Shown here: in pieces, positions 8,101 to 14,100 of the stretch
How the letters are laid out: each line of letters opens with the position of its first letter
Position numbering within the stretch: position 1 is the first letter of the stretch
From: a virus
Taxonomy: Duplodnaviria; Heunggongvirae; Uroviricota; Caudoviricetes
Virus record (IMG/VR): IMGVR_UViG_2875718163_000003
Length of the DNA stretch: 14,635 bases
Strand: one strand, 5' to 3'
Made by a program: the position numbers

Positions 8101-11100
8101 CAATTGCGCTTCCGCGTATGCTTCTTCCTGCCAGCACTTTGTTACCAGTTTACCAATGACGTCCGCATACCCCTTATACCACTGATAATCGGTCAGGTCT
8201 GGTACCAGCTTCTGGACATGACGTCGTGCCAGCGTGGTCGGTAAACGACTAAACCGGTTTCCATTACAACGCCCACAAATCTTATATACCGGTACGCCAT
8301 GAAACCGGGTTCTTTTTTCATCCAGAACAATCCCTTTACCCTTACACCCTCTGCACGCTGTGCTGGCTTCGCCCTTACCATGGCAATGCTGACATAGTTC
8401 CTTCACCCATTCTTCCTTGATTACAGATTCCCCGCGTCTGTAGTGTTTCACCACTTCGCGCAATACATTATAAAATCCCGTACCTGAACAATGCTCACAG
8501 CGAGCCTTACTTGCCGCAGACCTGGAGTAATCAGCAAAGGCAAAACTCACGAGGTAAGGAATAATCTGTAACCGGATTTCTTCACTCAATTTGTTCAATG
8601 TCGGGTTATCCAGTGCCATCGCGTAATTTAGCAGGCCTTCAATCGCAAACTGAGGGTCCTGAACACCAACTTTTGCCAGAAATAAGGCCAACCCAAGTGG
8701 TGCTTTCGACTGCACCATCCCCTGCGCTGCCATTACATCCGTAATTGTTAAACAACCGGTGCCTGTCGCTGGAGCGTCATCGCTCAATTTTGGAGATTTT
8801 GGGGAGTAATATTTTGGTAAGGCTTCAAGGTTCATGCTCGTTCTCCACTTACGCCAGTACGCCAATTGCCAGCGCGCGATCGATAAAACGAAATATCAGC
8901 TCCAGTTGGGAGCCATACTTATCTTCAAATGCCACTGTATCCGTATGCAGCTCGTTGTGATGCTTTCTGCACAAAGGCAACACAAAGAGATCATGTGCTT
9001 TTGTTCCCATTCCGCCCTGCCCGTGACCAATCAGATGATGCGGATCGTCGGCTGGCATACCGCAGCAAGCACACGGCTGTGTCTTAACCCAACGTGTGTA
9101 TTTCTCCTTAACCCAGCGGCGACGTTTAGGCAGCTTCATGAAAGATTCCGGAGACTCTGGATCAACGGTGATGCTTACCACCGTCTTTTCCTGTGGTGAT
9201 TTTTGTTGCTGGTGGGCGTAAGGCAACGGTGCAAGATTTTTTGTGCGTTGTTTCAATATGCTGGTGGCGGTCTGCTCTCCCGGTACGATGTCGCTTTCGC
9301 GGTACACCGAGCAGATTTTTTCCGCTGGTAATCCCAGCGAACGACGCGATACAGCCTCAGGTAGTGCATCCACCACCTGATTGCAGACCGCCCACCAGGA
9401 TAATTCAGCCAAAGATAATTCCCGCTCCTGCGTACCGCTTATTGCGTGACGGATGACGTCAATCACCCATGCTGTCAGATTTTGTTGAGCAAGCAGCTCC
9501 AGTGATTCCGATGTCTGGTCACGCAGTTGGTTGTCGCAGTGCCAGCACAACACCATTGCGCCGGTACCATAACGGTGAATGACTGTTTCAGTGTGATGGT
9601 AATCGCCATTAGGCCACTGGCAGGATGTAACATGACGTAATAGCCAGTCGGACAATGCGCCAACGCCGCCAGCAGCACGAATCACCCGTTCGTTACTAAA
9701 AAACGGCAGCAATGTTTTGTCTTCCGCCAGCGGCTGGCGAACGGCAGGAACGACTCCGGATGGCAGATTACGCATGCTTTTTGGTTCCGGTTCCACCAGC
9801 ACTCGAGGATTATGAAATATCTGTATGGATTCACGGCCCGGCTTAAGGACCACCAGCCCAAGCTCAGGCACCAGAACAGGTCTAAGTAATACCCGCACGT
9901 TACCTCCAGATCCGTTGCTGGAAAGTGCGGGACGCACGTGGTGGGCGTTCGGAATAAGGCAGCCTGACAGAGATTATCCAGTGCCGATAGTCGAGACTGA
10001 GAGCTTTCTTAACCTCGAACCCGCGCCTGCGGTAAGAATGAATCAGCCATTCGGCCTGTTCTGCAGTGCATGGAGGGTGCTGGAACCATTCAGACTTGAA
10101 TGCGTGAGAATACCGCCCGTGCGTGCAGGCAAGAACGGGCGAATTATCAGAATTGTAATATTTTGCGTTGCGTGCCATCGGTTTTCTCCGGTGGCACGGT
10201 GTTACTCAGCGGGAGTTCAGCCCCGCGCAAGATTGTAGATGAGTTTATTCTCCTGAAAAAGCAGAAAAGCCAGCTTTTATTCCGATCTCTTTCAATGCCT
10301 GTAATGAAGTGACAAACTCACCTTCGCGCAAGATAAATCCGTCCGTGACCCGAGCATCCACAAAATTAATTAACGCAGCCCCATTCTTTCGCAAACACAT
10401 AATGCGGTAATGACTAACAAGATTTCCATTTTCAACGCACACAGCATAGAGGCCATCTTCACAAAAAATTTTACGCAGTTCTTCGATGTTCATCATCAGA
10501 ATCCTTCCGGATAATTAGCTCTCCCCTTTAAGGGACCATCCCTCTTATCCCTGCGCGCTACTTAAGTATTTTTGATTCTATTCCGGCACCGTCCAGAACT
10601 TCAAACGCGTTGAAAATAAAAACAAAAACCCGCCGAAGCGGGTTAAGTGCGGGTGCGTTGAGGATGCCTGCCACATCAGAGGTGGCGAGGGATTTCTCCC
10701 CCGCCGGGTCTCTTACTCCTCAGGTTCGTAAGCTGTGAAGACAGCGACCTCCGTCTGGCCGGTTCGGATTCGTACCTCGCAGAGGTCTTTCCTCGTTACC
10801 AGTGCCGTCACTATGACGGTTAAACAGATGACGATCAGGGCGATTAACATCGCCTTTTGCTGCTTCATAGCCTGCTTCTCCTGTCAACGCAAAGCAGAAG
10901 TGTCACCTTCGGTGCGAAACAGAGATGTCATGCTTTGGTTCAGAGAATGCGTTTGACCGCCTCGCTATATACTTCCGAGCGTTCTCTTTTCCCAACAGAA
11001 ATCACGAAAACGACAACTTTCTCGTCTATAACCTGGTATACAAGGCGATAGCCTGAAGACCGGAGCTTAATCTTGTAACAATCAGGCATACCACGGAGCT

Positions 11101-14100
11101 TGTTTGCTTCAATCCGGGGTGACTCAAGTACTTCAACCAGCTTCTTTTTCAACTGTTCACGTACCGTCGAGCCCAGCTTTCGCCATTCCTTTAGTGCCCG
11201 CTCGTCAAAATCCAGAAAATACGCCATCAGAGTTCATCCAGCGTCACACGTACTGGCTTAGGATTACGAAGCCGTTCTTTCACTATCTCCACAAGTTCAG
11301 CATCTTCATCACTCAGGAGTGTCTGTTTGAACGGCAAGCGTTCATTGTCAGCGATATACTCGAGCATGAGACGAAGCGCTTCAGAAGGAGTTACACCCAT
11401 TTTTTCAAGCGCGGCGTAAGAACGCGCTTTAAGTTCATCGTCAATACGCAGGTTAATGCTACCCATGTCTTACACCTCTTGTAATTACAAATGTCATTAC
11501 AAGTATCGCACTACAACATGCTTAGGGCAAGTCACGAAGGAAGTCAGAAAGTAGTCGTAAGAACGGTGATCACTGTCCGCTTTGTGCCAGGAGCAGCCAT
11601 TGCTAAGTCCATCCTGTATTGTGCAGGTCAGCTCGTTTTTAAAGAGTCCGGCCATCATCTTACTGGTACAGACACCATATACTTTGTGACGGTCAGGCTA
11701 CATATGCACAACTCAACTTATTCATCTATTTTTTGCTTTAGCATGTCAGTGTTGCTTTCTCGTCGGCGGGTGAGCGGTGACCTGACCTGTCGATAAAGGA
11801 ACGTAACACGTTTTATGCAACACCCGCATGCGGCAGAAAATTATTGCCGAACGTTTACCCCTGTCAACAAGCTTTACTTTCTGAGGCGCGCCAGCCCGCG
11901 AGGAAAACAATCTGAACATCAAACAATTAATGACACAAGAAATACGATTAAAGATTTTTTTGTGCATGCCGATAGTGCTTTTTTAAAAGGAGAAATCTAT
12001 GTCTGTCACAATTCAGGGAAATACCTCAACCGTTATTTCAAACAACTCCGCCCCGGAAGGAACATCAGAAATAGCCAAAATCACAAGACAAATTCAGGTG
12101 CTGACTGAAAAGCTTGGGAAAATCTCATCGGAAGAGGGGATGACGACACAGCAGAAAAAAGAAATGGCTGCATTGGTACAGAAGCAAATTGAAAGCCTCT
12201 GGGCTCAACTGGAGCAGTTGTTAAGGCAGCAGGCAGAGAAAAAGAATGAAGACGCGACAGTTCAGCCTGATAAAAAAGAAGAGAAAAAAGACGATACAAA
12301 TACCGCTGGCACCATTGATATTTACGTCTAAGTGACAGCCGTATTGTGGCCCTCATCGGGCCACTTTTCGCCATCAGCCTTTTCTTTAAAGACATATTAT
12401 CTTTGTATCATTTCTGATAGTTAACATTACAAGATATAAGTAATGGACGCACTCCCAATTAGTCTATTTAAATCGCCACGAGTTTAACTGACAACCCATG
12501 ATCAATTATGAATTGCAACTATTTCTGTAGTCACTTTTGTGGGGACAGTCCACAAAACTGCCAACTTCCGCTTCTTGCTCTTAGCGGACATTAGCATAGG
12601 CTATTTACCATAACGCTTCATTACGCGCACCGCCCAGACTGACTCAGCGCGTTTCTGGCATATCCCCGGTAAAACAAGTAACAAACCACCCGAAAATGAA
12701 CACCAGAAACGCGACTTAAGAATCTACCCTATGAATGGATATGCACTCAACCGAATCGATCTTGGTTTCAATCTTTTTTATCGGGATCAGGCTTCTTTTT
12801 AGGTAACTTCGGGGGCTTAACTTGCTGATGACTTTGCGTTCGGCGCGTAAGCCAGGGATGGTCAGCTTTAGGTTTAACATAGTATTTTGAGCGTAAATCA
12901 ATACGGGCATTATCCACTCGTTCATGGACACTCTTTTCATCATCCAGTGGTAGCCTCCATAATTGCAGGCACTAGCGCCGTGAACTTTTCACGCTTATCC
13001 CTGGTGTCGATAGCCTTCCAGCGTTCAAATATCTTCACTCGATTAACGCCAAGCGCTCGCTGATCAATCGCGCCACCTTCATATGTGACACGCTGAACAT
13101 CGATGTTCGGGCGCTCTTTCAAAGCCCAGAATGCTTCAGTGATTAATATCGTCGCCTGCTCCTGTGTCATTCCTGGTCGACATATCCAGGCATCCAGAGC
13201 CTCACGAGCCTGTTCAGGAGTGATTTTCATTGTTCAACCGCCCCGCCCGCTTCGTCTTACGATATTCATCATAAACTTTGGGATCATACTGAAGCTCCCC
13301 GCCAGATGCCTCCTGTAGACGCATCGCGCGACCTTCGGGAACTAAATCCCCTTTCCAGCTATAAAGCGAAGCCAAACGAATACCTGCTGCTTGTGCAAGT
13401 TTTGTTTTTGAACCGAAATACAAAAGAGCGTCAGTTTTAAGCATTTAAAACACCTTTATTGTTAGTCATAACTAACAAGATAGATGTTAACAAAAACATA
13501 GTCAATACGATTTAGCATTAGCTAACTATGGAAACAAAAAATTTAACTATCGGCGAACGCATCAGGTATCGTCGGAAAAACCTCAAACACACCCAAAGGT
13601 CTCTTGCTAAAGCCCTGAAAATCTCCCATGTGTCTGTATCACAATGGGAACGGGGTGATAGTGAACCTACAGGGAAGAACCTTTTTGCCCTCAGTAAAGT
13701 ATTGCAATGCTCACCAACATGGATTCTATTTGGCGATGAAGACAAGCAACCAACACCACCTGTTGAGAAGCCAGTTGCCTTATCCCCCAAAGAACTAGAG
13801 CTCCTTGAGCTGTTTAATGCACTGCCAGAATCAGAACAGGATACCCAGCTCGCCGAAATGCGAGCTCGAGTAAAAAACTTCAATAAACTCTTTGAAGAAT
13901 TACTAAAAGCCCGTCAGCGGACAAATAAAAGATAACATCATCAATGAGTTATCTTTTACCACATCAATTATGTTAGCTATAGCATACAAAATCACTTGAC
14001 CGATATGTTAGTCATGGCTAATCTTGTTTGCATCAACACACCGCACGGTGTTCTCAGCAAACAGTTCCGCTACCCCAGCGTTAAGGGGAAATGAGGTCAG

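Follow-up and report, generated by a model that had tools for sequence, protein, structure and literature searches.

The stretch of DNA considered here, referred to as the window, comprises 14,635 nucleotides (nt) of the IMG/VR virus record IMGVR_UViG_2875718163_000003 (Caudoviricetes), and its minus strand carries, at 10612-11530, an operon in which a type II antitoxin-toxin pair, relB and relE, is followed by hokD, a gene of the Hok family of type I toxins. This locus is relB-relE-hokD (relBEF), an operon long known from Qin, a cryptic lambdoid prophage of Escherichia coli K-12. Specifically, the 1201 bases at 10500-11700 are 100% identical to the Qin prophage of E. coli K-12 MG1655, whose annotation across this region lists relB, relE, hokD and ydfV, all within Qin, with ydfV/flxA flanking relBE-hokD on one side and rem/ydfU/ydfT on the other. 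Sequence, genes, operator, 71-nt spacer and terminator are those of K-12 relBEF, with no difference, and at least 80% of the 1.2-kb stretch is present in 1162 of 5426 complete E. coli genomes. The relBEF operon has been known since the 1980s, and RelE and RelB are model proteins. In other words, the operon has already been described, and the loss of the hokD regulatory parts is likewise already in the literature.

All three genes are read from the minus strand. The first, relB (11227-11466), is an open reading frame (ORF) of 79 amino acids (aa) encoding a ribbon-helix-helix antitoxin and autorepressor. Its product matches Pfam PF04221 (RelB) at E=1e-32 and the NCBIfam equivalog NF008412 with 133 bits (cut-off 96), and the gene is annotated as relB in MG1655. 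The relB stop and the relE ATG share one base at 11227 (TGATG). The 95-aa product of relE (10940-11227), a ribosome-dependent mRNA interferase, matches PF05016 (ParE_toxin) at E=2e-13, exceeds the cut-off of TIGR02385 (RelE/StbE subfamily) with 54.7 bits and aligns over its full length, residues 1-95, with the RelE chains of PDB entries 4FXE, 4V7J and 4V7K (E about 1e-57). The translation contains K52, K54, R61, R81 and Y87, residues with a catalytic role in RelE structures. A spacer of 71 nt (10869-10939) separates relE from hokD, also named relF (10713-10868), an intact ORF of 51 aa for a membrane toxin of the Hok/Gef family. The hokD product matches PF01848 (HOK_GEF) at E=1.2e-23, is annotated in RefSeq as HokD (WP_000813254.1) and scores 48.5 bits against the NCBIfam Hok subfamily, under the cut-off of 73.

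A putative relBE promoter can be read from the sequence at 11502-11530 (minus strand), composed of a -35 box TTGCCC (11525-11530), a 17-nt spacer and a -10 box GATACT (11502-11507), from which transcription would start near 11495. This promoter was not flagged by a consensus promoter scan because it matches the consensus weakly; its placement is consistent with the published span of the operator relO (PMC2812701). The operator occupies 11479-11502, enclosed in a palindrome that an inverted-repeat search delimits at 11478-11503, and its half-sites, TTGTAATGACAT and TTGTAATTACAA, are identical to the published ones (PMC2812701). At exactly this locus, RelB2-RelE is known to bind four [A/T]TGT[A/C]A hexads extending from -10 to +17 of the transcription start, RelB is labile via Lon, and regulation follows conditional cooperativity (PMC2812701). 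On the opposite strand, the gene ydfV (11491-11796, plus strand), an ORF of 101 aa annotated without function, crosses the relB promoter and operator as well as the left arm of an inverted repeat that brackets relBE and is described below.

At the downstream end, an intrinsic terminator (10617-10644, minus strand), made of the stem-loop AACCCGCTTCGGCGGGTT (hairpin 10644-10627) and a T-run, provides the 3′ end of both the relBEF and the hok mRNA. The hairpin is the sole terminator-like site, and the hokD locus of strain EC1 (L002) ends in an identical element. An Rfam match to isrK, a Salmonella small RNA family, at 10623-10704 was discarded: it reaches 25 bits against a gathering score of 50 and is probably a terminator resemblance over the hairpins of the hokD 3′ untranslated region (UTR). 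The consensus scan detected neither a promoter-like nor a terminator-like site within the 71-nt relE-hokD spacer, which fits the co-transcription described in the literature. In particular, Northern blots with relB, relE and relF probes reveal one full-length transcript that is gone when PrelBEF is deleted (PMC3598666), and a published table reports both the 71-nt spacer and the co-transcription of relBEF (PMC5120126). ORFs, Pfam matches, identity to MG1655 and published transcripts all agree with the initial annotation, which had recognised one minus-strand operon of relB-relE and an intact 51-aa hok-family gene, with a palindromic operator upstream and a terminator downstream; its designation as a two-toxin operon is accurate at the level of gene content and presumptive at that of function. 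None of these elements is a product of chance.

That annotation had left undecided whether hokD possesses a Sok-like antisense RNA or an overlapping mok frame. Searches for both returned a negative answer. The Rfam model of the hok/sok leader, RF01794, has no match in the window at its gathering threshold and none in 10400-11700 at E<=10. This negative result is meaningful because six related hok loci are recognised by the same model, L002-L006 (hokD of EC1, O157:H7, UTI89 and a plasmid copy; hokC) with 104-122 bits and L008 (O157:H7 TR01) with 78 bits. Accordingly, in BLAST searches and alignments, the complete hokD and hokC loci and the hok/mok genes of Stx phages begin to align with the window only at 10882, which lies 14 nt ahead of the hokD ATG, and continue downstream. 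Upstream of this point the complete relatives carry their own promoter, tac, a Sok-complementary region and a mok ATG located 57 nt upstream. The leader that holds tac, ucb and the own promoter of hok in these relatives is missing from the window, and the L002 hok promoter, TTGGCG-17-TAGAAT, has no counterpart there.

No usable mok was found either, both candidate frames being closed by a TGA. By frame analysis, the mok frame in phase with hokD is interrupted six codons upstream. The R1-type mok frame, which runs in another phase, remains open over 10720-10902 (minus strand) and has lost its 5′ end, with a TGA at 10905-10903; the only start candidate is a TTG at 10887, devoid of a Shine-Dalgarno sequence. 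A Pfam search of this remaining frame gave no match in the window, whereas the equivalent frame of the plasmid copy matches DUF5431, the family that PGAP annotates overlapping hok genes and that is taken here as Mok, only from profile position 15 of 70. The consensus promoter scan of the plus strand over 10400-11800 found no promoter-like site; since the genuine Sok promoter of L002 escapes the scan as well, although the L002 hok promoter is found, its negative outcome was given no weight, and the absence of Sok rests on the covariance model and on homology. When aligned by eye, the strand antisense to the leader sequence that precedes 10882 lacks the -10 and -35 hexamers present at the Sok promoter position of complete loci. 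On these comparisons, hokD is to be regarded as a Hok toxin gene but not as a hok/sok system. In the same vein, passages of two reports describe K-12 hokD as "inactivated by rearrangement", an event removing the canonical components (PMC12214031, PMC7232551, citing Pedersen and Gerdes 1999).

What is retained at hokD is the AGGAG motif, the coding sequence, the fold-back inhibition (fbi) element, the 3′ hairpins and the terminator. The Shine-Dalgarno sequence AGGAG (10878-10882, minus strand) lies 9 nt before the ATG, and homology to canonical loci starts here. The motif is intact in the window and in nearly all relatives, and overexpression of HokD is toxic according to published work, so that hokD corresponds neither to a harmless ORF nor to a gene whose ribosome-binding site is disrupted in all relatives. 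A relBE-hokD copy in E. coli ECMA0423 (L027, around 4891) shows GGAG changed to GCAG in the hokD ribosome-binding site together with several nearby single-base indels, reflecting decay or an assembly error. The fbi element CCTCAACGCACCCGC (10649-10663, minus strand), which belongs to the 3′ UTR of hok mRNA, is conserved in all hokD-type loci, and the 3′ hairpins are conserved between the window and complete hok loci. In predicted folds of the complete relatives L002 and L008, fbi pairs with tac, a 5′ partner that the window does not have. Folding of 3′ fragments of the window RNA instead predicts pairing of fbi with UGCGUUGA (10884-10891), beside the Shine-Dalgarno sequence, with p=0.57-0.96, a pairing not seen in the full-length fold. 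This octamer is conserved in relatives with different 3′ UTRs, and its complementarity to fbi is therefore probably fortuitous.

A further structural element concerns the hokD start site itself. A long-range helix is predicted between a 5′ arm at 10859-10883 (minus strand), which covers the hokD Shine-Dalgarno sequence, spacer and AUG, and a 3′ arm at 10721-10745 (minus strand), within hokD codons 42-50. The pairing of the Shine-Dalgarno sequence and AUG with codons about 42-50, just before a conserved TACG, is predicted separately for each hok type folded. In an alignment of 8 loci, 91% of the cells are paired, compared with 29-44% in slid controls, and 3 pairs have changed on both sides. The pair probability is 0.7-0.98 in window RNA fragments starting anywhere from 11000 to 10910. 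The hokD Tyr47 codon TAC (10728-10730), inside the 3′ arm, lies within TACG, the A-to-I editing motif of TadA; editing of the A at 10729 in hokD mRNA, at about 6%, has been reported to convert Tyr to Cys (PMC12214031, PMC5630033).

The region immediately upstream of 10882 is informative about how hokD came to its present context. Strain EC1 carries a Qin-like prophage (L007) located, like Qin, at rspB, and between 10882 and 4155 the two sequences are 99.6% identical. The 2.07 kb of the window from 10883 to about 12950 (remnant, relE, relB, ydfV, flxA and more) correspond in EC1 to 4.3 kb, containing replication-region genes, a DUF4209 gene and a complete hok leader. Within the relE-hokD spacer, about 49 nt (10883-10931, minus strand) constitute a leader remnant without homology to the canonical mok/Sok-promoter region found at other hokD loci. 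Since this segment recurs beside hok genes without relBE, it is the tail of a second, non-canonical type of hok leader. Specifically, it is found in L008 (O157:H7 TR01; 100% from 10926), joined to a canonical 5′ leader with no relBE, in the Klebsiella IncF plasmids L012 (88% from 10929) and L013 (84% from 10931), before R1-like hok genes, and standing alone in the IncHI2 plasmid L014. For this reason, the placement of the relBE/hok joint at 10882 was rejected, as 44-49 nt upstream of it occur beside hok genes without relBE in L008, L012, L013 and L014. Position 10882 is the boundary between two hok leader types, while the relBE-specific sequence ends near 10932, about 9 nt past the relE stop. 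The L008 leader (1393-1564) is itself a hybrid, composed of a canonical 5′ part, from tac to the mok Shine-Dalgarno sequence, and 44 nt of the non-canonical remnant; a mok ATG is consequently lacking, no Sok promoter can be made out by eye, and the Rfam score falls to 78 bits.

Taken together, the locus is best explained, with high probability, as an intact but orphaned type I toxin gene, hokD, riding on the RelB/RelE type II module. According to this model, hokD has been cut off from its promoter, from tac and ucb, from the start and Shine-Dalgarno sequence of mok, from the Sok target, and from sok with the sok promoter, and their place is taken by a relBE cassette of ~712 bp and the ~49-nt foreign remnant, joined just upstream of the hokD Shine-Dalgarno sequence. 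Without this control region, the only transcription that reaches hokD, the third cistron, is read-through from the relBE promoter, and the hokD mRNA level therefore tracks the RelB/RelE autoregulation shown in the literature, in which the operon is repressed by RelB2-RelE on relO, overlapping the -10 box, and derepressed when RelB is degraded or RelE is in excess. At the level of translation, the hokD Shine-Dalgarno sequence and AUG would be shut by their conserved long-range pairing with codons 42-50. Where a hok system is complete, hok translation depends on that of mok (PMC9841398), and ribosomes translating mok would open this helix, a function for which no mok is present here. Because mok is gone, HokD would be made poorly from the relBEF mRNA, and because the Sok target is gone, no RNA antitoxin would act on the hokD mRNA. 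HokD would be lethal if forced and silent, or nearly so, in normal growth, its synthesis being normally, in all likelihood, very low.

Several known systems are close to this locus. With hok/sok (parB) of plasmid R1 the window shares a Hok toxin of about 50 aa, a 3′ UTR with fbi and terminal hairpins, and a start site buried in predicted mRNA structure. In contrast to R1, hokD here lacks its own promoter, tac/ucb, mok, the Sok target and a sok gene, and it stands under the promoter of a type II module instead of the control by antisense RNA and 3′ processing. The complete hokD/hokW-mok-sok loci of other lambdoid prophages and Stx phages (for example L002 of EC1 and mokW/hokW of VT2-Sakai) and hokC/mokC agree with the window in the hokD coding sequence, the 3′ UTR, the prophage genes that follow (rem, ydfU and the Q antiterminator) and the place within the phage genome, with 93-99.6% identity from 10882 downstream. 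These loci keep a leader of ~170 nt, with promoter, tac and a mok ATG placed 57 nt upstream and in frame with hok, whereas the window has relBE and the foreign 49-nt remnant in its place. Lastly, the relBE-hok cassettes of plasmids (IncHI2, IncF and others) are 98.8-99.2% identical to the window over relB, relE, the operator and 57 nt past relE, and carry a Hok gene at the same distance after relE; the gene is another allele (52 aa, with five further types), its 3′ UTR is different and its short upstream ORF, discussed below, starts with ATG.

These plasmid cassettes form part of a wider pattern. Cassette and remnant together (window 10864-11594) occur with 98.8-99.2% identity on several hundred plasmids of Enterobacter, Klebsiella, Citrobacter, Salmonella and E. 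coli, with counts, at ≥80% coverage, of 705 for a relBE-spacer query and 469 for a junction query; the plasmid cassettes then carry a different 52-aa Hok, and homology to the window ends at 11594. An exact 39-mer over the relE flank and the remnant is present in 18 species-representative genomes of about eleven genera. In all 18 genomes and in many plasmids (L015-L032, L009, L012-L014), the sequence is constant up to GCGTTGACA (window 10883), past which there follow six different Hok-family genes (all matching PF01848), three unrelated sequences, one of them with an end of IS903 after a further 17 nt, or else a canonical hok leader in inverted orientation. The junction is strikingly sharp and reused. 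Among these genomes, L026, a contig of 535 bp labelled Streptomyces sp. E11-3, contains the exact enterobacterial relE-remnant-hok sequence and is almost certainly an assembly contamination. Where relBE is more diverged (91% in Salmonella, 75% in Pantoea), no hok was found behind it.

Further features of the cassette concern its ends. An imperfect inverted repeat of ~35 nt brackets relBE, with its left arm at 11558-11595 and its right arm at 10876-10912; the gapped alignment of the arms spans ~34 columns, about 28 of them identical, and its score was reached in 0 of 2000 shuffles. This repeat could mark where a mobile cassette ends, or it could be what is left of an RNA stem from the ancestral leader. 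The left arm of the IncHI2 copy (L009, 1933-1956) forms a hairpin of its own, with a T-run. An integron attC core at the GCGTTGACA junction was considered and rejected by inspection, as GTTGACA does not fit GTTRRRY and the break would fall between G and TT. The sequence GTCAACGCAA may resemble an IS30 end.

Several observations weigh against a silent, orphaned hokD. Folding the 878-nt mRNA globally does not give the long-range helix (pair probabilities ~0.01), and because of this the argument for a closed start is based on 3′ fragments and on covariation in only 8 sequences. The hokD Shine-Dalgarno sequence is strong, with AGGAG at 9-nt spacing, and the ORF is intact. The relF portion is the most abundant transcript fragment after toxin-induced cleavage (PMC3598666) and could be translatable. 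In addition, other genera have no fewer than six distinct intact Hok genes behind the relBE cassette, which resembles maintenance by selection and not decay. Finally, an antisense RNA unrelated to Sok may escape homology searches.

In one alternative, hokD is the working second toxin of a composite module, with RelB as its indirect, transcriptional antidote. Upon strong derepression, for example following amino-acid starvation, RelB loss, or cleavage by RelE, MazF or MqsR, a stable 3′ hokD fragment would accumulate, refold and be translated; on plasmids, the three genes together would strengthen post-segregational killing. Besides the abundance of the relF cleavage product (PMC3598666), the intact ribosome-binding site and ORF, and the joining of a near-identical relBE cassette and remnant to six Hok-family genes in about eleven genera and on hundreds of plasmids, this alternative draws support from the conservation of fbi and of the 3′ hairpins needed for hok mRNA stability, and from the induction of hokD mRNA in mixed biofilms described in the literature. 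In the predicted folds of 3′ fragments, however, the hokD start is sequestered (p 0.7-0.98) and mok is not there to free it, and hok has been lost past the same junction in several relatives (L014, L015, L019, L031). Neither a relBE deletion strain nor relBEF induction is known to give Hok-type ghost cells, which also counts against a working second toxin. Moreover, the literature regards K-12 hokD as inactive (PMC12214031, PMC5630033). On balance, a second working toxin is a possibility that we regard as unlikely. With a similarly tentative standing, relBE-hok could be a maintained, mobile three-gene module and not a one-off accident of K-12.

Much less probable is that translation of hokD is coupled to a substitute for mok, with the helix opened either by translation of a short upstream ORF or by ribosomes that end at relE, 71 nt upstream. 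The ORF in question (10865-10906, minus strand), MTLLLCVDRRSRL, has 13 codons, starts with GTG, and its TGA overlaps the hokD ATG (ATGA). An AUGA overlap and an in-frame start are found in the four remnant-bearing leaders examined (window/L008, L009, L012, L013), the start being GTG in the window, ATG in the plasmid copies and in L012, and GTG in L013; in the plasmid copy L009 the ATG lies three bases upstream in the same frame, and in L012 the ATG-started version has its stop 5 nt before the hok ATG. But the GTG has no preceding Shine-Dalgarno sequence, AAGG abutting the start codon, and the ATG seen in the plasmid copies has become AAG in Qin. In addition, the TGA overlap is present in every hok gene because codon 2 is Lys, and a coding constraint on the short ORF cannot be shown because the stretch is conserved at the nucleotide level. 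The significance of this ORF is doubtful.

The weakest proposal, that hokD is controlled by an antisense RNA not homologous to Sok or by a Sok acting in trans from another hok locus, is most improbable, for nothing positive speaks for it beyond a promoter scan too strict to find even the L002 Sok promoter, while that scan gave no plus-strand promoter-like site in 10400-11800, the strand antisense to the remnant has, by eye, lost the Sok -10 and -35 hexamers, a trans-acting Sok would have no pairing partner as its target region is absent from the hokD RNA, and chromosomal Sok RNAs did not inhibit R1 hok (PMC9841398).

Elsewhere in the window, matches to the cspA thermoregulator family are found at 6917-7309 and 4022-4407, with 159 and 113 bits; they fall at the 5′ regions of cspB and cspI, cold-shock genes of the prophage, as expected for Qin.

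For the window itself, an orphaned hokD riding on RelB/RelE is of little significance, other than closing the question raised about its regulators and fixing, to the base, which parts are lost, which are kept and where the joints lie. The sole possibly new point is that one relBE cassette is repeatedly found linked to many hok alleles, a modular pattern of which a limited literature search found no mention in a recent survey preprint on Hok. If this linkage is selected, a type I toxin would have given up its RNA antidote and come under the transcriptional control of a type II antitoxin, and RelB would be the effective antidote of both toxins. The sharp junction would be a recombination hot spot or a cassette end. 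The wider relBE-hok pattern on resistance plasmids may consequently deserve a short study in the context of plasmid addiction and of type I toxins, as it would represent a natural example of a type I toxin under type II control.

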